39,838 nt of DNA from Candidatus Peregrinibacteria bacterium (GTDB lineage: Bacteria > Patescibacteriota > Gracilibacteria > UBA1369 > LOWO2-01-FULL-3), in contig JACRIB010000016.1 in assembly GCA_016235895.1 (NCBI GenBank), forward strand, positions 1-39,838, given 5' to 3'. A model generated the notes under the pieces. It saw only the letters and a program-made list of their open reading frames with translations. It was not told where the DNA came from and searched no databases. Positions 561 through 37,800 of the stretch are shown piece by piece. A program made the translations under genes and the position numbers. Position 1 is the stretch's first letter, and every line of letters starts with the position of its first letter.

Positions 561-628
561 ATTTTAGAAAAATTTTAAGTTTATTTTAGATTTATTTTAA
601 GAAAATTTTAGATTCGACTGGTATTAAT
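561..628 (+). promoter_or_regulatory. phased ATTTTA(A)G repeat tract followed by extended -10 (TGgTATTAAT, 619-628)
   Basis: Five ATTTTAG/ATTTTAAG units with roughly 10-11 bp spacing. The 20-mer TTTATTTTAAGAAAATTTTA (591-610) is identical to 2551-2570. Confidence 0.4.
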
Positions 629-1347: not shown

Positions 1348-2181
1348 ATGATGGAGGCGGATGTTCGCTATCTCGAAAGAGAATTAAAAATCAGAAATTA
1401 CAGCATCAGAACAGTGCAGGCCTATTGTTTGGCCGTGCGGGAATTTCTGAAATTTGCGCAAAAATTTGGCAAAACGTACCTGAATTTTAAGCGGCTGGAT
1501 GAGGATTTTATCAAGGATTTTTTGTTGCGCAAAAAGGACCTCGATTGTTCGCCTAAAACACTAAATGTTTATCTGTCTGGAATAAAATATTTCTACAAAG
1601 AAGTTTTGGGAATAACGCATCCAATAAAAATAAAATTCGCTAAGATAAACAATAAATTGCCGGTGATTTTGTCACATGAAGAAATTATGGAAATTATACG
1701 AACTTTGCAAAATTTCAAGCATCGGGCAATCATTGCCCTGGCTTACGGCGCGGGATTGAGAGTCAGTGAAGTTACAAAAATAAAAATCGCCGACCTGAAT
1801 TTTCATCAAAAATCCATCAATATTCGCCAATCCAAAGGCAATAGAGATAGAATTTCTCTTCTTCCAGAGCCATTGATCAATGATTTGAAAAAATTAATCG
1901 GCAATCGCGAGCCAAAAGAATATTTATTCCAAAGCAATCGAGGTGGAAAACTGACCACTCGTACATTACAAAAGATTTTTCGCATGGCCGTCGACCGTGC
2001 CCGTATCTGTAAAAACCCGACATTTCATTCTCTAAGACATAGTTTTGCCACTCACCTACTTGAAGGTGGTACTAATCTGCGCCTTATTCAGGAACTCCTT
2101 GGCCACCAAAATATTCGCACCACGCAAATTTACACGCAAGTTTCCCCTTCCATGATGACAAGCGTGAAAAGTCCGCTATAA
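1348..2181 (+). CDS. tyrosine recombinase (XerC/XerD / phage-integrase family), apparently intact
   Basis: GLRVSEV (Arg I), SKGNRDR (Lys), HSLRHSFATHLL (H-x-x-R) and LGHQNIRTTQIYTQV (His/Tyr) are all present. Confidence 0.9.
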   Translation: MMEADVRYLERELKIRNYSIRTVQAYCLAVREFLKFAQKFGKTYLNFKRLDEDFIKDFLLRKKDLDCSPKTLNVYLSGIKYFYKEVLGITHPIKIKFAKINNKLPVILSHEEIMEIIRTLQNFKHRAIIALAYGAGLRVSEVTKIKIADLNFHQKSINIRQSKGNRDRISLLPEPLINDLKKLIGNREPKEYLFQSNRGGKLTTRTLQKIFRMAVDRARICKNPTFHSLRHSFATHLLEGGTNLRLIQELLGHQNIRTTQIYTQVSPSMMTSVKSPL

Positions 2182-2522: not shown

Positions 2523-2588
2523 ATTTTAGAAATTTTAGATTTTTTTTAATTTTATTTTAAGAAAATTTTAAGTTAGTGTGCTATTAAT
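2523..2588 (+). promoter_or_regulatory. second copy of the ATTTTA(A)G repeat tract plus extended -10 (TGcTATTAAT, 2579-2588), upstream of recA
   Basis: ATTTTAAGAAAATTTTAAG at 2554-2572. The 20-mer 2551-2570 is identical to 591-610. Confidence 0.4.
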
Positions 2589-2686: not shown

Positions 2687-3748
2687 ATGGATGCAAAAAG
2701 TGAGAAGAGCAAGGCTATCGAGCTGGCCATTGCGCAGATCGAAAAAAATTTCGGTAAAGGCTCGATTATGAAAATGGGTGAAATTGGGAAGTTTCCAATT
2801 GAGACGATTTCAACCGGTTCTATATCCTTGGATGTGGCATTGGGCGGAGGTATTCCGCGCGGCAGAATCATCGAAATCTTTGGGCCGGAAAGTTCAGGCA
2901 AAACCACTTTGAGTTTGCACATTCTGGCTGAAGCGCAAAAAAAGGGCGGCACGGTTGGATTCATTGATGCGGAACATGCTCTTGATCCGGAGTATGCCAA
3001 AAGAATTGGCGTAAATATCGATGAATTGGTCCTATCGCAGCCGGATAGCGGTGAGCAGGCGCTGGACATTGTCGAAACTTTGGTAAGAAGTAACGCGCTG
3101 GATGTGGTGGTGGTGGATTCCGTGGCGGCTCTTGTGCCAAAAGCGGAAATTGATGGCGATATGGGCGATTCTCATATGGGACTTCAAGCTCGTCTTATGA
3201 GTCAGGCGCTCCGTAAATTGACAGCGGTTGTTTCCAAATCAAAAACAACGGTCATTTTTCTCAATCAGTTGCGCATGAAAATTGGCATAATGTTTGGCAA
3301 TCCGGAGACCACAACTGGTGGTCAGGCACTGAAATTTTATGCTTCGGTACGTATGGATATTCGCGCTGCCGGCAAGATCGAAGATCCGGCAAGCGCTGAA
3401 AAAGAATTGATCGGCAATCATGTTAGAGTGAAGATTGTCAAAAACAAAATGGCTCCGCCCTTCAAGGTCGCGGAGTTCGATATCATGTACAACAGAGGCA
3501 TTTCTTTCGAGGGTGATCTGTTGGATTTGGCCACAAAATACAATGTTACTCGTAAGTCCGGGGCTTTTTATACCTACAAGGATACCAAGCTCGGCCAGGG
3601 TCGCGAAAATGCCAAAAATTTTCTGATGGAAAATGATAAGGCCTGCAAAGCCATCGAGAAAGATGTGAAAACCTTGCTTTATGGCGATCCGAAAGAGGTG
3701 GAAAAATTAGTAGAAAAATTAACTGAAAAATTACCGGAAGAAGTATGA
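2687..3748 (+). CDS. recA: recombinase RecA
   Basis: Walker [10 protein letters not shown], plus [17 protein letters not shown] and [10 protein letters not shown]. The ATG at 2687 gives a typical N-terminus ([14 protein letters not shown]). The ORF-track start at 2639 is probably too early. Confidence 0.97.
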
Positions 3749-4269
3749 CTAAATATGAAAAATTAATTCAGTACGCTTTGCGCATCATCGCTAAAAAACG
3801 TTATACCACTTTTGAAATTGAAAAAAAGTTGAAGCTGTTTTTGGCAAGGCAGGCCTGCCTGCCGGACAGGCAGAAGAAATTGGCAAAGGAGAACGCCGAG
3901 GAAGAGACCGAAGCCATCAATGCCGTGCTCGCAAGGCTGCAAGAATTAAAATATTTGGATGATTCAGTTTATGCCGATGATTATATCGCGGATAGAAAAA
4001 AGTTCAGACCTCGCGGCAAGTTTTTACTTGCCCGAGAATTAAAAAAGAAAGGACTGGATGCGGACTTGATTCAAAACGCCCTAGAAAAGCAAAAGTCAGA
4101 CGAGTCCGAAACCGCAGTTAGAGCCCTGGAAAAAAAGTCCAGGCAATGGCATGATATTCCATTACCAAAGCAGAGAGAGAGAGCTTATCGCTTTCTCTCT
4201 GCCCGGGGCTTCGATTCGGATGCTATTTACAAAGCCATAAGTTGCTGTTACAATCGGGCCATAGAGTAG
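3745..4269 (+). CDS. recX: RecX regulatory protein
   Basis: ATGA overlap with the recA stop. Helical-repeat protein with RecX-like motifs ([30 protein letters not shown]). Confidence 0.8.
3847..3873. repeat. GC-rich palindromic element inside recX
   Basis: AGGCAGG/CCTGCCT palindrome followed by the CTGCC-GGACA-GGCAG hairpin. The 17-mer 3857-3873 is identical to 5793-5809. Confidence 0.7.
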
Positions 4270-5605: not shown

Positions 5606-5700
5606 TGCTATAATAATGGGATATTTTCGAACCCACAGAGCGCTTGCGTTCCGGCGAGCCTAAGGGCGAGCATGGTGAGCGAAGCGAAAACCTATTATTT
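5606..5700 (+). promoter_or_regulatory. extended -10 (TGcTATAAT, 5606-5614) plus GC-rich leader of pilB
   Basis: The leader 5629-5690 is GC-rich and contains GCGAGC-CTAAGG-GCGAGC (5654-5671). It is open in frame with pilB from TTG 5644, so translation cannot be excluded. Confidence 0.4.
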
Positions 5701-7494
5701 ATGGCAGACGATAAGGCTATACAAGCAGCCCAACAACTGGAAAAGGACCTGCAGGCCAAAAAAATTCAAGAAGCCGGCGGTGAAACAAGCTCGCCTGCCG
5801 GACAGGCAGGCGCGAAAACGGCCGTAAAAGATAATTCAAAAAATGCCGCCGAAACTCAAGTTGTTCTTACCGGTATGACCGGTATCAATCGGGAATTTCA
5901 GGAAAAATCGGTCTTGAAACAGGCCGAATCGCTGAATTTGCCGTATGTGAATATCGGCAAGACCCCACTAAATCCGGATTTCTTGAAATTGGTGGATCTT
6001 GAAACGGCTAAAAAAGCGCGTATTGTTCCATTTTTCAGAGTGGGTAAAAAAGTGCGTGTGGCCGTGCAGGACAGCAATAATCCCGATACCCAAGCCGTAA
6101 TCAAGTCTTTGCAGGAAAAAGGTTTTGAAATCAATTTGAATCTGGCTTCGTCCGCGGGTATTGATGATGCGCTCTACATTTACGACCAGACCCAGAAGTA
6201 CAGAAAAATGGAAATCGTGGAAAGTGTGGAAAAAAAATCCATCAAAACTTACGAAAAAGAAATTGCCACTTTGAAAGAATTGACGACTAAACTCGACAGC
6301 GTGACGGCCGAAGAAGGCTTGAATCTGCTCAATGTCGGCGCCATGAAGACCGGTGCTTCCGATGTGCATTATGAGCCCAATGAAAAAACGGTAATCGTGA
6401 GATTTCGTATTGATGGCGTTCTACATAAAGTTTTTGAAATCAAACCGGACACTTATATCAAAATTGTAAATCAACTCAAGTACAACAGCAGGATGAGGCT
6501 CAATGTCACGACGGTGCCGCAAGACGGACGTTATGATTTCTTGTTCAATGACCAGAGAATCGCGGTGCGTGTTTCTTCCATTCCAACGCCTTATACCGAG
6601 TCGTTCGTATGCAGATATTTGCCGAGCGAAGAGATTACCTTGAGTTTTGAAGAACTGGGATTTCAGGGCTTGGCGCTAATAAAATTGCAGAAAGTTTGTG
6701 AAATTTCTCATGGCATGGTGCTGGTCACGGGCCCTACCGGTTCGGGAAAAACAACCACGCTGTATTCCATTTTGAGTAAAATGAATACGCCTGAGGCGAA
6801 GATTATTACACTGGAGGATCCGGTGGAATACAATTTGCGCGGGGTGACCCAGAGCCAGATCGATGAAAAAAGAGACTATGATTTTGCCAAAGGTTTGCGC
6901 GCGATTTTGAGGCAGGATCCGGACATCGTGATGCTCGGAGAAATACGTGATTTGGAAACGGCGCAGACGGCCGCGCAGGCGGCGCTTACCGGTCACGTGG
7001 TGCTTTCCACTTTGCATACCAATAGCGCGATAGAAACTATTCCGCGCTTGGTAAATATGGGCTTGCCGCCATTCATGATCGGCCCTTCTTTGGATACCAT
7101 TGTGGCCCAGAGGTTGGTGAGAAAAATGTGTCCAAAATGTTCTACCATGGAGCCGATTTCCGATTCCGCCAAAAAGGAATTTGAAGCAATTATGACGAAT
7201 TTGAAAAATGTAAATCCGGCGGTGGTGGTGAATATTCCCGAAAAAATTCCGGCCGCTCACGGCTGTGATGACTGCAGCCAGACGGGGTATAAAGGCCGTT
7301 TGGTTATTTGCGAAGTGATTACTTTGAATAATGCCTTGAAAGATTTGATTTTAAATAAGGCCAGTCTGGTGGATTTGATTGGCGCGGCCAGAAAAGATGG
7401 CATGACTACCATGAAAGAAGATGGATTTTTGAAAGTGGCGCAGGGTCTTACTACGCTGGAAGAAGTCTATCGTGTGACTAACGTTTTAGATTAG
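5701..7494 (+). CDS. pilB: type IV pilus / type II secretion assembly ATPase (PilB/GspE family)
   Basis: GSPII_E N-terminal-like region, Walker A GPTGSGKTT, LRQDPDI, and a tetracysteine CPKC...CDDC motif. Confidence 0.9.
   Translation: MADDKAIQAAQQLEKDLQAKKIQEAGGETSSPAGQAGAKTAVKDNSKNAAETQVVLTGMTGINREFQEKSVLKQAESLNLPYVNIGKTPLNPDFLKLVDLETAKKARIVPFFRVGKKVRVAVQDSNNPDTQAVIKSLQEKGFEINLNLASSAGIDDALYIYDQTQKYRKMEIVESVEKKSIKTYEKEIATLKELTTKLDSVTAEEGLNLLNVGAMKTGASDVHYEPNEKTVIVRFRIDGVLHKVFEIKPDTYIKIVNQLKYNSRMRLNVTTVPQDGRYDFLFNDQRIAVRVSSIPTPYTESFVCRYLPSEEITLSFEELGFQGLALIKLQKVCEISHGMVLVTGPTGSGKTTTLYSILSKMNTPEAKIITLEDPVEYNLRGVTQSQIDEKRDYDFAKGLRAILRQDPDIVMLGEIRDLETAQTAAQAALTGHVVLSTLHTNSAIETIPRLVNMGLPPFMIGPSLDTIVAQRLVRKMCPKCSTMEPISDSAKKEFEAIMTNLKNVNPAVVVNIPEKIPAAHGCDDCSQTGYKGRLVICEVITLNNALKDLILNKASLVDLIGAARKDGMTTMKEDGFLKVAQGLTTLEEVYRVTNVLD
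5789..5814. repeat. GC-rich palindromic element inside pilB
   Basis: GCTCGC followed by CGCCTGCC-GGACA-GGCAGGCG (8-bp perfect stem, 5792-5812). Confidence 0.7.
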
Positions 7495-15971: not shown

Positions 15972-17093
15972 ATGCTTTCAAAAAAACTTTCAATTGTTTT
16001 AGTGGCTGTTTTGACAGCCGGTATACTGGTAAACAGCAGCACTTTCGCGGCAGCGAAAAAGGTTAAAGACATCTCCGGCACGGAAGATTTTAAGGATTTG
16101 AATATTGTGGTCGACGGCAAAAAGTTGGATTCAAAGAAAACTGAAGCGCCAAAAAAGGTTCGCAAAAAGGTAAAACAGATCGGCGCGACGGTGATTTCCA
16201 ATCCCGACTCTTGCGCCTTTAATTATCCCGATACCGAATCTTATGGCGCCGATGTGGTTTCTATCAGACGTCAATTAAAAGTTAATCCGGGTGAGAGTTT
16301 TCGGGTGAAAGTATTTTTGAGAAATACCAGTAATATGCCCTGGTTCTCAAACAAAAGCGACTGTCATGGATTAAAAATGTCTTTGGGTACCGATAAAGAA
16401 CGGGATCACGATAGTATTTTTTACAATCAGGGGTTGGCCGGATGGGAAGGATCAAATCGCATTGGAATGGATCAGTTAAGAGTAGATCCGGGACAAATCG
16501 CTTCATTTACCTTTACCGCTCAGGCCGCCACAAATGGCGATGTTTACAAGGAATATTTCGCCCCTGTTTTGAAAGATGTACAGTGGCTCGACAGCTCCCG
16601 ATTTTATTTGGATGTAATGGTGGGAGATACCGATGAAAGTGCCGGTGACTTAAGAAAGAAGATTGCTTATTCCACAACCAGCGGTTCGGTGATGAATATT
16701 GATTTAAACGCGCAAAAAAGTGTACACGTGGATCTTGCCGAACAAACTTTACATGCGTATTTGGGAGATTCGGAAGTACAAAGCTTTAGGGTAAGCACGG
16801 GTAAGTCTTCCACTCCCACCCCAAAAGGTTCATTTAAAATTTTCCTTAAGCAAAATGTGAGAGTTGGATCTGAGCCACCCCATTATGTTATGCCAAAATT
16901 TCAAATGTTTATAGACAACGGTACCGGTTTTCATGCTTTGCCAAGCTTAGCCGGAGATGGCGGGACTTTCTGGACGGAAGCGAGAAATCATATCGGTATA
17001 CCCGTAAGTCATGGTTGCGTAAGATTGTTACCTGAAGACGCGGATTGGCTGTTTGATTTTTCGGATACGGAAACGAAGGTGAATATTTCCTGA
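15972..17093 (+). CDS. L,D-transpeptidase (YkuD domain) with N-terminal membrane anchor
   Basis: C-terminal HALPS...SHGCVRL catalytic motif and a hydrophobic N-terminus. Confidence 0.85.
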   Translation: MLSKKLSIVLVAVLTAGILVNSSTFAAAKKVKDISGTEDFKDLNIVVDGKKLDSKKTEAPKKVRKKVKQIGATVISNPDSCAFNYPDTESYGADVVSIRRQLKVNPGESFRVKVFLRNTSNMPWFSNKSDCHGLKMSLGTDKERDHDSIFYNQGLAGWEGSNRIGMDQLRVDPGQIASFTFTAQAATNGDVYKEYFAPVLKDVQWLDSSRFYLDVMVGDTDESAGDLRKKIAYSTTSGSVMNIDLNAQKSVHVDLAEQTLHAYLGDSEVQSFRVSTGKSSTPTPKGSFKIFLKQNVRVGSEPPHYVMPKFQMFIDNGTGFHALPSLAGDGGTFWTEARNHIGIPVSHGCVRLLPEDADWLFDFSDTETKVNIS

Positions 17094-22415: not shown

Positions 22416-23034
22416 TATGGTGATAAAAAAAGGAAAAGAGAGAGAAAAGAAAATTTTTAAAAAAATTTTCTTGTTAGATAATTTCGATTCGTTTACTTTC
22501 AATTTGGTGGATTATTTTAGGCAGCTGGGATGCGAAGTTTTTGTTTATAGAAACGACGTAGACGTTGGTGTCGTGGACAAAGTGAAACCGGATTTGATTG
22601 TTTTTTCGCCCGGGCCATCGGTGCCGAAGAATGCCGGCAATATGATGAAAATAATTGATAAATATCATAAAAAATATCCGATGTTTGGGGTGTGCTTGGG
22701 TCATGAAGCTTTTGTGGAATACTTTGGTGGCAGTTTGAAATTCGTGAAGCCGGTGCATGGAAGAAATAGTCCGATTGAGCACGATGGAAAGACTATTTTT
22801 AGTGGAATTGAGCCTGGATTTTTGGCTGGCAGATATCATTCTCTTTGTGCAGATAAAGTGCCTGCGTGTTTTGAAGTTAGTGCTAAATTTGAAGGATTGG
22901 TGATGGCGATGAGACATAAAACTTTGCCAATTGAAGGGGTGCAGTTTCATCCGGAATCGGTGTTGACCATGAAGCATGGAAATGGCTTCAAGATGATAGA
23001 AAACGTAGTTAATAAAAAATTTGCCAATGTTTAA
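22408..23034 (+). CDS. trpG: anthranilate synthase component II (glutamine amidotransferase)
   Basis: LLDNFDSFTFNL, GVCLGHEA and GVQFHPES. Confidence 0.9.
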   Translation: MNNMVIKKGKEREKKIFKKIFLLDNFDSFTFNLVDYFRQLGCEVFVYRNDVDVGVVDKVKPDLIVFSPGPSVPKNAGNMMKIIDKYHKKYPMFGVCLGHEAFVEYFGGSLKFVKPVHGRNSPIEHDGKTIFSGIEPGFLAGRYHSLCADKVPACFEVSAKFEGLVMAMRHKTLPIEGVQFHPESVLTMKHGNGFKMIENVVNKKFANV

Positions 23035-24724
23035 GAAAAAGGAAATTAGGGCTTTTTTGAATGACTCAATTGCGGGGAAATTGTGTGTGGATGAACAGGT
23101 AAAATTTTTGGCGGAATTCACGCCAGAGAAAGTCACTGCCGAGCAGCTAAAAATATTTGCAAAATTTATGTTAAGCAAAATCACCACCAAGCTGAAAATG
23201 CCTGGAGCAATTGACATTTGTGGTACCGGTGGGTCGGGTTTAGCGCGTATAAATACGTCCACAATTGCGGCTTTTATTCTTACCGAGTTGGGCGTGGGAG
23301 TTGCTAAGCACGGCAACAAAGCGGCGAGTGGCAGATGTGGCAGTTTCGATCTACTGGAAGCGCTGGGTGTGCAGATTGACAAGAGCCCCGAAGAGCTGGA
23401 AAAAATGTATAGGAAAAAAGGCTTGGCATTTATTTTTGCCAGAAATTTCCATCCGGTTATGAAGCATTTTGCGGAGGCAAGAAAAATTCTTGGCAAACCT
23501 ACAATTCTGAATTTGCTTGGCCCTTTGCTTAATCCGGCCGAGCCTAAAATGCAGATTATTGGAACGAGTTTCAAGGGTCAAATGAGAATGATCGCTCAAA
23601 CAGCGAAGCTTTTGGGAAAGAAAAATGTGTTAATAGTAAGGGGTGAAGATGGCTTGGATGAGGTCACATTGACCGGTAAAACTGACGTGGTGGAGTTGAG
23701 TGATGGGAAAATTAAAGAATATCAAATTCGGCCGGAGGATTTTGGGTTGAAAGCCGTTGATTTTGCGGAAATTAGTGGTGGAAATTTGGAAACTAACAAG
23801 AAAATTGCTGAGGAAATTCTATGTGGTGAACGAAAAGATAGTAAAGCTGATTTGGTCTTTGTGAATTGTGCCTTAGTACTGAAAATGATGGGGAAAGTTG
23901 AGGCTTTGAGAGATGGATATGAGTTGGCAAAAAGTGTTAGCGGGAAGAGGAAATTAGAGGCTTGCAGGGGAAATGTCTTAGAGGAGATTGCTGCTTCTAA
24001 AATAATCAAGAAGGCCACGAGGAATTTTTTTGAGACTTTATTCAAAAAAAGCGCTCGCGGTGCCTTGCCTACCGGCAGGCAGGCTCGCGCTTTGATTGCC
24101 GAAGTGAAATTTGCTTCGCCAAGCAAAGGGAAAATTTATAAAGGGAAAATTGGCGCTGAAACAGCGGTGAAAATTGCTAAATTATATGAAAAATATGGAG
24201 CAAGCGCCGTGTCAGTTTTAACTGATGAAAAATATTTTAATGGCAGTTTTGAATATTTGAAAAAAGTAAAAGAAGTGACAAAAAATGTGCCGATCCTATG
24301 TAAGGATTTCATTGTAACCGAATATCAAATTTTTAAAGCGCGAGAATATGGCGCAGATGCAATTTTGCTGATTGCTAAACTGCTTACTGTAGGGCAAATG
24401 CAGCATTTTTTGAAACTTGCAAGGAGCTTAAGTATGGAATGTTTGGTTGAAGTTCACAACGAAGAAGAATTGGCAAAAGTTCTAAAAACTGATGCGAAAA
24501 TCATTGGCATAAATAATAGAAATTTGAGTGATTTTACGATTGATTTGGAGACTACAAATAGGCTGGTGAAGCAAATTCCAAAAGATAAGATAATTGTTGC
24601 GGAAAGCGGCATATCCAGCCGTGAAGATTTGAATAAATTAGATAAAAGAGTCGATGCGATACTTGTCGGCACCGGCTTAATGAGTGCGAAAAATATAACC
24701 AAGAAAATTCATGAACTCACTTAA
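23021..24724 (+). CDS. fusion: anthranilate phosphoribosyltransferase (TrpD) :: indole-3-glycerol-phosphate synthase (TrpC)
   Basis: The N-terminal half has CGTGGSG and HGNKAASGRCGSFDLLEALG. The C-terminal half has LIAEVKFASPSKG and LTDEKYFNGS. There is no TrpF-sized segment. Confidence 0.85.
   Translation: MPMFKKKEIRAFLNDSIAGKLCVDEQVKFLAEFTPEKVTAEQLKIFAKFMLSKITTKLKMPGAIDICGTGGSGLARINTSTIAAFILTELGVGVAKHGNKAASGRCGSFDLLEALGVQIDKSPEELEKMYRKKGLAFIFARNFHPVMKHFAEARKILGKPTILNLLGPLLNPAEPKMQIIGTSFKGQMRMIAQTAKLLGKKNVLIVRGEDGLDEVTLTGKTDVVELSDGKIKEYQIRPEDFGLKAVDFAEISGGNLETNKKIAEEILCGERKDSKADLVFVNCALVLKMMGKVEALRDGYELAKSVSGKRKLEACRGNVLEEIAASKIIKKATRNFFETLFKKSARGALPTGRQARALIAEVKFASPSKGKIYKGKIGAETAVKIAKLYEKYGASAVSVLTDEKYFNGSFEYLKKVKEVTKNVPILCKDFIVTEYQIFKAREYGADAILLIAKLLTVGQMQHFLKLARSLSMECLVEVHNEEELAKVLKTDAKIIGINNRNLSDFTIDLETTNRLVKQIPKDKIIVAESGISSREDLNKLDKRVDAILVGTGLMSAKNITKKIHELT
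24051..24090. repeat. GC-rich GCTCGC-bounded palindromic element inside the TrpC part
   Basis: GCTCGC (24053-24058), then N24, then GCTCGC (24083-24088). The core GCCTACCGGCAGGCAGG closely resembles the recX/pilB 17-mer. GGCAGGCTCGC is shared with 36476-36486. Confidence 0.65.
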
Positions 24725-25943: not shown

Positions 25944-26716
25944 AAAAATTGATGACGCACATTGTGGCAGGTTATCCTAGCCTGAAAAAGAGTGAGGAAT
26001 TATTGCGTTTAATGGCCAAGAATGGCGCGGATTTCATAGAGATCCAGATCCCTTTTTCTGATCCTGTAGCCGATGGACCGACTATTATGCAGGCGAATCA
26101 AAAGTCACTGGAGGCCGGGACGAAAGTAGAAGATTGTTTTGAATTGATGAAGAAGATGACAAAAATTGGCAGTGAAACGAAGTTTTTATTTATGACCTAT
26201 TTCAATATTCTACACCACTACGGCGTGGAAAAGTTTTGCAGTAGAGCAGCCAAGTGTGGCTGTTATGGCTTGATTGTTCCGGATATGCCGATTGACGAAG
26301 AGGCTCAAGAGCATTACCTGAAAAATTGTAGGAAACATGGGCTGGCGCCTATTCAGATAATCTCGCCTCTCACGCCTGAACGCAGATTAAAAATGATCGC
26401 AAAGGTAGCCGCGCACCCCGCGCGGCATGGAGCCTTGGCATCAGCCGAAGGATTTGTGTATTGCGTTTCGAGATTTGGCACAACTGGACAGGAAAGTAAG
26501 CTCAATCCGCAGCTTAGTTCTTATTTGAAAAAAGTAAAAAAACACATAAAAGTGCCACTGGCTGTTGGCTTTGGAATATCAAATAAAGCCCATGTGGAAG
26601 CTGTTTGGAAGGAGGCTGATATTGCTGTTGTCGGGTCCAAAATTATCAATATTTTGAATGAGAATAGTGGAGATTTGAAGAAGTTGGAGGAGTTCGTGAA
26701 GGGTTTAAAATTGTAA
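25940..26716 (+). CDS. trpA: tryptophan synthase alpha chain
   Basis: EIQIPFSDPVADGPTI, YCVSRFGTTG and GFGIS. Confidence 0.9.
   Translation: MKKLMTHIVAGYPSLKKSEELLRLMAKNGADFIEIQIPFSDPVADGPTIMQANQKSLEAGTKVEDCFELMKKMTKIGSETKFLFMTYFNILHHYGVEKFCSRAAKCGCYGLIVPDMPIDEEAQEHYLKNCRKHGLAPIQIISPLTPERRLKMIAKVAAHPARHGALASAEGFVYCVSRFGTTGQESKLNPQLSSYLKKVKKHIKVPLAVGFGISNKAHVEAVWKEADIAVVGSKIINILNENSGDLKKLEEFVKGLKL
26408..26445. repeat. GC-rich hairpin-containing insert inside trpA
   Basis: CCGCGC-ACCCC-GCGCGG hairpin (26408-26424). CATGGAGCCTTGGCATCAGCC (26425-26445) matches intergenic 12144-12164 at 17 of 21 positions. Confidence 0.6.
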
Positions 26717-31540: not shown

Positions 31541-31561
31541 GCCCTGCCTATGGCAGACAGG
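31541..31561. repeat. intergenic member of the CCTGCC...GGCAG palindromic family
   Basis: GCCCTGCC-TAT-GGCAG-ACAGG. Confidence 0.45.
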
Positions 31562-36451: not shown

Positions 36452-36503
36452 GCTCGCCTTACCGGGTAGGTGCAGGGCAGGCTCGCTAGAGCGCAAGCGC
36501 TCT
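36452..36503. repeat. GC-rich GCTCGC-bounded element plus AGAGCGC-AA-GCGCTCT palindrome between convergent genes
   Basis: GCTCGC (36452-36457), then N23, then GCTCGC (36481-36486). A perfect 7-bp-arm palindrome at 36488-36503 overlaps the murA stop. Confidence 0.55.
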
Positions 36504-37748
36504 GTCGATTTTGGCTCCCAAGGATCTTAATTTTTCATCGAGCTTTTCGTAGCCGCGATCGATGTAGTAAATATTGGAGATTTCTGTAGTGCCCTCCGCA
36601 ATTAAAGCGGCGATAACCATAGCCGCTCCGGCACGGATATCACAGCTGGAGATAGGCAGACTTTTCAGCTTGCCAGGGCCAATAATCAGGGCCTGATGAG
36701 GATTTAAAAATTCGATATGCGCGCCCATTTTTTCCAACTCAAAAAGATAATTCAAACGTCCTTCAAAAAGAGTTTCAAAAATTTTGCTGACGCCATGCGC
36801 TTGAGTTAATAAAACCGTAAAAGGAGCTTGTAAATCGGTGGCAAAACTGGGATAAACCGCGGTGCGTAGCATTTTGGTGGCATGTAATTCTTTACCGGGA
36901 AAAATTTCCACTGCTGATTTTGAAAGCTTGAATTTACCGCCAATTTCTTCAAGTTTTTGCCAAAAACTGTCGAGATGATCGGGGTTTATTCCCTTGATGG
37001 TGATGTTGCTTTTGGTGGCCACTGCGGCAATAGCAAAAGTACCGGCTTCAAGATAGTCCCCGGTGATGGTGTATTTTCCCCCTTTGAGGGTTTTTACACC
37101 TTTAATTTTTACGTTATTGGTTCCGATGCCGGAAATTTTGGCGCCCATTTTGCACAGAAAATTACAAAGATCCTGAACATGAGGCTCGCAGGCGGCCAGA
37201 CGTATTTCGGTTTCTCCTTCAGCCAAAACAGCGGCCATGATGGCATTTTCCGTAGCGGTAACACTTAATTCAGGCAGAACAATTTTCTTACCTTGGAGTT
37301 TTTTTGCTTTAATATGCAGACCTTTTTGGTCGTCCAAAATTTCGCAACCAAGTTCTTTGAGGGCGTGAGTGTGAGCATGCACGGATCTTTTACCGAGGAC
37401 GCAGCCCCCGGGGAAAGCCATTTTTACCTCACCGAAGCGCTGAATCAAGGGGCCTAAAATCAGGATTGAGGCGCGCATTTTTTTAACGAGATCGTTGGGG
37501 GTGTTTTTACCTTTTAAAGCGGTGGCGTCTATTTCCAAAATATTATTTTTGAAAATGATTTTGGCGCCAAAGCCGGCTAGAATTTTGGCCATGGAATGAA
37601 TATCTTCGATATTCGGCACATTTTCCAAAATCACTTTGCACTTTATCAATAGAGCAGCGCACATAATTGGAAGAGTGGCGTTTTTTGAACCGCTGACCGT
37701 TACTTCTCCACTTAATTTTTGTCCTCCATGGACGATAAAATTTGCCAT
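36486..37748 (-). CDS. murA: UDP-N-acetylglucosamine 1-carboxyvinyltransferase
   Basis: GSKNATLPIM and the active-site loop FPGGCVLGKR. The ATG at 37748 (MANFIVHGG) matches typical MurA N-termini. Confidence 0.95.
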   Translation of the reverse strand: MANFIVHGGQKLSGEVTVSGSKNATLPIMCAALLIKCKVILENVPNIEDIHSMAKILAGFGAKIIFKNNILEIDATALKGKNTPNDLVKKMRASILILGPLIQRFGEVKMAFPGGCVLGKRSVHAHTHALKELGCEILDDQKGLHIKAKKLQGKKIVLPELSVTATENAIMAAVLAEGETEIRLAACEPHVQDLCNFLCKMGAKISGIGTNNVKIKGVKTLKGGKYTITGDYLEAGTFAIAAVATKSNITIKGINPDHLDSFWQKLEEIGGKFKLSKSAVEIFPGKELHATKMLRTAVYPSFATDLQAPFTVLLTQAHGVSKIFETLFEGRLNYLFELEKMGAHIEFLNPHQALIIGPGKLKSLPISSCDIRAGAAMVIAALIAEGTTEISNIYYIDRGYEKLDEKLRSLGAKIDRALAL

Positions 37749-37761
37749 GTTTCTTTTGTAA

Positions 37762-37800
37762 GCTCGCGCCGTGCGCTCGCTGTGCATTTATACAATATTT
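37762..37800 (-). promoter_or_regulatory. TTGTATAAA promoter-like box plus GC-rich 19-mer in the murA leader
   Basis: The minus strand reads TTGTATAAATGCACA-GCGAGCGCACGGCGCGAGC. The 19-mer is identical to 15865-15883. Confidence 0.45.

Follow-up and report, generated by a model that had tools for sequence, protein, structure and literature searches.

Short palindromic DNA elements, some of them within protein-coding genes, are known from several settings. Rickettsia palindromic elements (RPEs) were reportedly described by Ogata and colleagues in 2000, and those of the RPE-1 type are ~100-150 bp long and confined to Rickettsia. The GC clusters of yeast mitochondria and the PstI palindromes of Neurospora include some polymorphic in-frame insertions (in var1) and are organellar and longer (~18-50 bp) than the unit considered below, while DNA uptake sequences (the DUS of Neisseria and the uptake signal sequences, USS, of Pasteurellaceae) occur about once per kb, are lineage-specific and form no hairpin on their own. 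Repetitive extragenic palindromes (REPs) can also be intragenic, with many such copies in repair genes (Di Nocera et al. 2013, PMC3733652); CGTC-tagged REPs have 8-9-bp stems and 4-5-nt loops, and the short RPE-4 and RPE-6 have been re-classified among them (PMC3733652). Here we examine a 21-bp perfect palindrome of which three copies lie in a 39,838-nt contig of a Candidatus Peregrinibacteria bacterium (JACRIB010000016.1, the whole of which is referred to as the window), in recX, in pilB and in a trpD-trpC fusion gene. We would put at roughly 0.7 the probability that this mini-repeat is a selfish, REP/RPE-like hairpin element, dispersed in copies that were gained as exact 21-bp units and possibly also precisely lost.

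The first-pass annotation of this DNA had reported an exact 17-mer shared by recX and pilB, and GCCTGCCGGACAGGCAG is indeed found on the + strand at both 3857-3873 and 5793-5809. Its suspicion that chance could hardly explain the pair is borne out, as the mean number of matches at up to three mismatches was 0.03 in 100 dinucleotide-preserving shuffles, none of which reached four. Exact repeats of at least 17 nt in the window include only two that are GC-rich, this 17-mer being one of them, and the remaining ones are AT-rich promoter-like blocks. The 17-mer is the core of a longer, 21-nt perfect palindrome, CCTGCCTG-CCGGN-CAGGCAGG, with an 8-bp stem and a 5-nt loop (preceded by R and followed by G in the consensus that includes the edges), to which it is nearly always extended in viral contigs and metagenomes. 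The full 21-mer with a CCGGA loop, CCTGCCTG-CCGGA-CAGGCAGG, has a predicted stability of -13.8 kcal/mol, and the copies range from -12 to -18 kcal/mol. The sequence is composed of short CCTG/CAGG repeats, amounts to exactly seven codons and contains a stop codon in none of its six reading frames. Relative to the 21-nt consensus CCTGCCTGCCGGNCAGGCAGG, one mismatch is seen in the copy of recX (3854-3874) and two in that of pilB (5790-5810), where 0.00 such matches are expected by chance.

The copy in recX (E1, 3854-3874, + strand), CCTGCCTGCCGGACAGGCAGA, agrees with the consensus at 20 of 21 positions and is read as (A)CLPDRQ(K), in the context QACLPDRQ. Its host gene occupies 3745-4269 (+), and homologues of the product have Pfam RecX domains and place the window among MAG contigs of Peregrinibacteria (Peribacteria). 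The pilB copy (E2, 5790-5812, +), CTCGCCTGCCGGACAGGCAGGCG, agrees at 19 of 21 positions and is read as S-S-P-A-G-Q-A-G, which is the frame favoured across the family; its host encodes a type IV pilus/type II secretion system (T2SS) ATPase (5701-7494, +), the true start of which is the ATG at 5701 and not the TTG at 5644, as judged from orthologues and an independent gene call. Both copies fold into hairpins, E2 with the 8-bp stem that had been claimed, CGCCTGCC/GGCAGGCG (-17.9 kcal/mol), and E1 with a 7-bp stem, CTGCCTG/CAGGCAG, and a 5-nt loop in a different register (-12.0 kcal/mol). The readings ACLPDRQ in recX and SPAGQAG in pilB were also correctly given and, because the two copies use different reading frames, conservation is at the DNA level, as had been argued. 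Both copies are found again, at 100% identity, in a separate Logan assembly of run SRR12113407. E1 lies in a hypervariable linker between RecX helical repeats, and has no counterpart in the recX genes of the related loci L001-L004 or of any other relative examined, the nearest genomes in GTDB having ~66% RecX identity. E2 is situated in PilB's N-terminal linker, likewise hypervariable; here the pilB gene of L001 has a stretch of the same length that retains the core GCCGGTCAG and is possibly, judging by sequence, a decayed orthologue of E2, which may also be old.

At the third site the insertion itself can be delimited. The annotation had listed a near-copy in trpD/C (24067-24083), and this proves to be a true family member at 24061-24081 (E3, +; TGCCTTGCCTACCGGCAGGCA, read as ALPTGRQ), diverged and in the orientation opposite to that of E1 and E2, at the start of the TrpC part of the trpD-trpC fusion gene (23027-24724, +). 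Both the protein alignment of close orthologues and the DNA alignment show a clean insertion of 21 nt, or seven codons. The window reads SARG-ALPTGRQ-ARALIAEVK, its sister species (GCA_964480115.1, contig CAYZOB010000051; loci L001 and L222) reads SARG-ALPAGRQ-ARALIAEVK, and the insert, present in the window and in the homologue P0035, is missing as exactly seven residues from ~15 orthologues of 76-80% identity. In DNA the site is filled in L222 and empty in L224. An alignment of the window TrpC region with the PDB entry 6bma shows no gap; this is misleading, and the close-orthologue alignment is decisive. The GCTCGC flank that had been built into a looser consensus is ancestral Ala-Arg coding sequence at this site and stands outside the element. 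On these comparisons E3 would be older than the split from the sister species and would have diverged since, the copy in L222 having become another perfect 7-bp palindrome (CTTGCCT-GCCGGT-AGGCAAG). Besides the three family members of the window, a looser, arm-based search finds copies in related species at sites of their own: an independent 21-nt insertion in the trpB gene of L222 (QAMPDGR), a near-consensus copy within the ctpB terminator (L224:4542) and an intergenic palindromic variant (L004:16542). These separate sites suggest activity of the family within this Peribacteria clade.

Filled and empty versions of the same site are also found far from this clade. Omnitrophota enolases that are 94-100% identical to each other carry the insert, DKA[SLPAGQA]GILPVP, which relatives of 91-92% identity do not have, and the same seven residues are missing from the enolases of B. 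subtilis and E. faecalis. The DNA of one pair was compared (L190 and L291, ~95% identical), and the difference is exactly 21 nt. Within clusters of at least 90% protein identity three further sets of this kind were found, namely a radical-SAM enzyme with the seven residues present in two sequences and missing in eight, an SQR-like oxidoreductase of Ignavibacteria (present in nine, missing in one) and an Fn3 surface protein of Patescibacteria (present in three, missing in one). Identical filled sites recur in many contigs and metagenome-assembled genomes (MAGs) of different projects. The Omnitrophota enolases (P0152-P0167, L190 and its relatives) have a separate peculiarity in a 14-residue in-frame unit, PEGxGLASxSQSHK, that is absent, single or tandemly triplicated, and other short inserts occur at further sites, so several kinds of short in-frame repeats exist in these genomes.

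A scan of metagenome contigs with the exact 17-mer gave at least 120 loci, with 123 matches listed, to which the following counts refer. Contigs with a GC content of 0.50 or lower, in which a match is very unlikely to be due to chance, account for 87 of them. In those low-GC copies that were open to a check, the full 21-mer stands in 71 different surroundings. An open reading frame (ORF) of at least 100 aa spans 64 of the 87 low-GC copies (74%), compared with 87% of random positions, so the element, unlike REPs, does not avoid genes. Its hosts include enolase, UDP-glucose dehydrogenase, GyrB, PurL, the E2 component of a 2-oxoacid dehydrogenase, pullulanase, radical-SAM enzymes and RsmF. In the hosts analysed with Pfam, it falls inside a Pfam domain. 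Frame use is strongly biased in ORFs of at least 150 aa (PAGQA 39, PVRQA 12, and 8, 8, 7 and 6 for the others; chi-square p = 8e-12), LPAGQAG being the most favoured reading, and there is an orientation skew of 55:25. The frame skew points to selection on the encoded peptide, which also argues against an artefact. Some single genes or short contigs contain the 21-mer or variants of it two or three times, in different frames (PurL of L121, the histidine kinases of L134 and L125, L157 and L198), and one PurL contains ACLPDRQGQAG plus ACLSGRQA.

By the names of their sources these copies belong to Peregrinibacteria, other Patescibacteria, Omnitrophota and Ignavibacteria. The 21-mer is also carried by viral contigs of IMG/VR, including one low-GC contig with three copies. 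The idea that the family might be peculiar to this kind of genome is therefore untenable, as the identical sequence occurs in all of these groups. When the loop was left free in the search, 32 of 46 viral matches had a CCGGN loop, which is constant across unrelated viral sites. The loops of two control hairpins of the same base composition, in contrast, differ between independent contexts, and these controls are found in viral contigs mainly as orthologous terminators.

How the element enters a site can be approached through the flanks of the 71 copies. A purine precedes 65 of them and there is a tendency towards G at position +1; as a rule the flanks have no more than 1 nt in common with the element, and 7-nt flank matches are confined to heptamer arrays. 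Some intergenic copies sit in phase within such short arrays, but a test for period-7 flanks flagged only 2 of 121 sites, which makes this association a minority feature. The empty enolase site reads AGGCAAG, resembling one arm of the element, and the trpB target in L222 reads CAGGCC/T, repeated at both edges of the insert. These arm-like sites are compatible with copying guided by microhomology, though not as a general rule.

The comparison with the systems introduced above can now be made more closely. Like RPEs, the family consists of hairpin palindromes inserted in frame into unrelated genes (21 nt at trpC and enolase, with the three further seven-residue sets), and tolerated in loops, with both genic and intergenic copies that decay after insertion. 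Unlike RPEs, the unit is 21 bp long, untagged and unrelated in sequence (the 71 copies examined have no adjoining CGTC/GACG tag), and it occurs in the candidate phyla radiation (CPR), Omnitrophota, Ignavibacteria and phage contigs. The RPE-like reading offered by the first-pass annotation is therefore right in so far as this is a dispersed in-frame palindromic family, and fails in that the unit is about one fifth the size of an RPE and has no RPE or REP similarity in sequence or tag. With REPs and REPINs it shares a small GC-rich stem-loop that is dispersed, sometimes associated with terminators and occasionally genic, and it has the numbers expected of REP-type stem-loops of 20-40 bp in many copies (an 8-bp stem, at least 120 metagenome loci, three copies in the window). 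It differs from them in lacking a GTAG or CGTC tag as well as a 3-bp tail, in that low-GC copies are mostly inside ORFs (the 64 of 87 given above), in that no RAYT, the transposase of REPs and REPINs, was seen in the 40 kb at hand, in its low copy number per genome and in its identity across phyla, REP families being usually species- or genus-specific. Being untagged and not mainly extragenic, it lacks what defines membership among REPs, and no dimers of the REPIN type were noticed among the copies looked at, although no systematic test was made. Uptake sequences are likewise short genic DNA motifs with preferred frames, situated where proteins tolerate them and enriched in genes for genome maintenance; the present element differs in that only ~3 copies occur in 40 kb and in being common to several phyla. 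The mitochondrial palindromes of yeast and Neurospora are also short, GC-rich and spreading in an AT-rich genome, an analogy only, with different sequences. Other identities were considered and rejected: (i) miniature inverted-repeat transposable elements (MITEs), which have terminal inverted repeats, target-site duplications and lengths of 50-500 bp, as opposed to a 21-nt unit with no duplication; (ii) CRISPR; (iii) an intrinsic terminator for the window copies, all three of which are inside ORFs with no T-run, although some copies elsewhere would fit; and (iv) a DNA uptake sequence, given three copies in 39.8 kb and none in 16 related loci, against about one per kb. The best-supported description is of an element that is REP/RPE-like in geometry and behaviour, unusually small, untagged and widely spread.

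Several observations weigh against reading the repeat as a selfish, copy-spreading unit. The tags GTAG and CGTC each occur in at most 2 of the 71 flanks, and in 62 of the 71 copies there is no target-site duplication beyond 1 nt; with neither tags nor duplications, no known transposition chemistry fits. Among 20 window ORFs scanned against Pfam there was no HUH/Y1 transposase domain, and the only recombinases were Xer-like. Pairs of filled and empty sites cannot separate gain from precise loss. The recX and pilB linkers are rich in indels and vary in length and sequence in all orthologues, so that DNA alignment with L001-L004 could not define insertion edges for E1 and E2 and an insertion is there neither delimited nor excluded; the orthologue comparison proposed earlier gave a clean seven-codon insertion at trpC. 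Sixteen related Peregrinibacteria loci have no close copies of the 17-mer at up to three mismatches (the sole match, L012:3653, is weak), which indicates a low copy number per genome. Finally, the stem of the L222 trpC copy has stayed perfect despite substitutions, which a purely neutral reading does not explain; this hints at selection or self-correction for structure. The two Xer-like tyrosine recombinase genes are located at 1348-2181 (+) and 13219-13788 (-); the matches of the latter are confined to the SAM-like domain at the N-terminus and the final third of the catalytic domain, so it is probably internally deleted. It adjoins a Fic-domain gene (12163-13068), and neither L001 nor L003 aligned with this stretch.

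The point about the stem speaks for an explanation in which the hairpin is functional and is kept by selection, whether for RNA stability or processing, as a terminator or attenuator, or as a protein or nucleic-acid recognition site such as a DNA-uptake signal (these small-genome bacteria being dependent on competence), the genic copies being tolerated by-products or regulatory pause sites. Several intergenic copies (L159, L220, L174, L210 and L224:4542) are indeed followed by a T-run or lie inside a terminator, predicted stabilities are -12 to -18 kcal/mol, the L222 trpC copy keeps its 7-bp stem through changes on both arms, and two of the three host genes in the window, recX and pilB, have recombination or competence functions and are near recA and dprA. 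We nevertheless consider this explanation unlikely. Density is far under that of uptake sequences, with ~3 copies per 40 kb here and none in the 16 related loci; the same sequence is found in unrelated phyla; near-identical genes do without it; the insertion sites are unrelated loops of unrelated enzymes; and the genic copies of the window have no T-run. An Rfam search over the whole window (E-value up to 1) returned two tRNAs and three sub-threshold matches overlapping tRNAs, and no family at any copy.

It may also be asked whether a mobile donor is needed at all, as hairpins could arise anew at each site through fold-back, template-switch errors of replication, in which case the copies would be alike because they converge on GC-rich (CCTG)n/(CAGG)n arms. 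New hairpins are documented to arise by template switching (reportedly in the preprint 10.1101/2023.04.19.537475), the empty enolase site and the edges of the trpB insert are already arm-like, and the lineage has unrelated GC-rich in-frame hairpin insertions in trpA (36 nt) and in the uvrD gene of L222. Such an origin leaves unexplained, however, why identical 21-mers, including the unpaired CCGGA loop, stand at 71 unrelated low-GC sites and why the CCGGN loop is constant in viral contigs while control loops vary, and it has to contend with flanks that share no more than 1 nt with the element in general; we regard it as very improbable. A chance match within linkers of low complexity that encode Pro/Ala/Gly/Gln, or an artefact of sequencing or assembly (an adapter-like hairpin, for example), might be suspected from the variable low-complexity linkers around E1 and E2 and from the short CCTG/CAGG repeats, but is effectively excluded by the 0.00-0.03 matches expected in shuffles, the two copies in different frames, the second assembler, the inherited and diverged trpC copy in a second species from a different study, the recurrence of filled sites across projects and a frame bias that implies selection in living cells.

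For a selfish or neutral 21-bp element, which is how the evidence is most naturally read, a possible course of events can be outlined. Copies landing in genes would keep the frame because 21 bp is seven codons, stop-free in six frames, and selection would then retain copies that fall in linkers or loops at the protein surface and are read in the frame that does least harm, LPAGQAG. At replication forks, hairpins of single-stranded DNA might serve as copying intermediates, with either an enzyme acting in trans or a template switch to another copy, and phages might carry the element between lineages; these steps are guesses. Tentatively, and with rather less than even odds, one could go further and see here an extremely small and previously undescribed mobile element, a stop-free palindrome of 21 bp moving within and between distant phyla (CPR/Patescibacteria, Omnitrophota, Ignavibacteria) and their phages, with no target-site duplication, by a mechanism outside the known transposase families, and routinely adding an LPAGQAG loop to housekeeping enzymes. 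Neither the DNA string nor the encoded peptides were matched in the literature searched, and keyword searches gave only general REP and RPE work.

If the selfish-element reading is correct, few mobile or copy-spreading DNA units known to us would be as small as this repeat, and its length and stop-free frames would permit residence in essential genes. The identical sequence across phyla would imply horizontal spread, probably through phages. It would also be a source of recurrent seven-residue indels in conserved proteins of uncultivated lineages, and such indels can mislead MAG alignment, phylogeny and strain typing. The pairs of filled and empty sites make the mode of hairpin movement directly testable.

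The window contains further GC-rich hairpins. Of the five copies listed in the first-pass annotation, two are intergenic near-copies whose resemblance to the family is loose: the one at 31541-31561 is a weak hairpin (-8.6 kcal/mol) in a position like that of a 5' untranslated region (5'UTR), and the other, listed at 36452-36486, belongs to a pair of GC-rich hairpins (36452-36512) between convergent genes that look like a bidirectional terminator. For neither could membership be demonstrated. The insertion in trpA (26407-26442, +) is unrelated in sequence; it is a GC-rich, in-frame stretch of 36 nt, AAHPARHGALAS, that forms a perfect hairpin (GCCGCGC-ACCCC-GCGCGGC) and is missing from L222 and L224. 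A 19-mer, GCGAGCGCACGGCGCGAGC, occurs exactly at 15865-15883 (+) and 37762-37780 (-), in two 5'UTRs just downstream of TATAAT-like boxes. The genes concerned are an L,D-transpeptidase gene at 15972 and murA, with a real start probably at ~37748, and positions 15869-15889 are a 21-nt insertion relative to L222. In viral contigs the trpA insert is matched only at high GC and the 19-mer only at a GC content of 0.55 or higher, so there is no comparable cross-genome family for either of them.

The window also has other repeats. An AT-rich upstream block is present at 570-628 (+), 2530-2588 (+) and 9664-9699 (-), with the core ATTTTAAGAAAATTTTA exact in all three and the blocks 81-86% alike over 36-59 nt; a -10 box of TATTAAT-like sequence closes each copy, just upstream of a small ORF (~690), recA (2639) and dprA (9675, - strand), and the arrangement looks like a single promoter or operator shared by genes of recombination and competence. 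In front of pilB a GC-rich block of ~60-75 nt (5632-5690) separates the TATAAT box from the ATG; it is at the same site in L004 (~12400-12470) and missing in L001-L003; part of it recurs as the reverse complement at 36479-36510, and it may represent a second, unrelated family of 5'UTR insertions. The start of the contig has nested inverted repeats (111-134/434-457, 24 nt at 92%, and 247-264/401-418, 18 nt exact) that enclose ~300 nt with no Rfam match. Lastly, between the Fic gene and an ABC-ATPase gene (12128-12153), the heptamer AGCACGG stands twice in tandem and is flanked by AGCCTGG and AGCCT, recalling the arrays that flank some of the metagenomic 21-mer copies.
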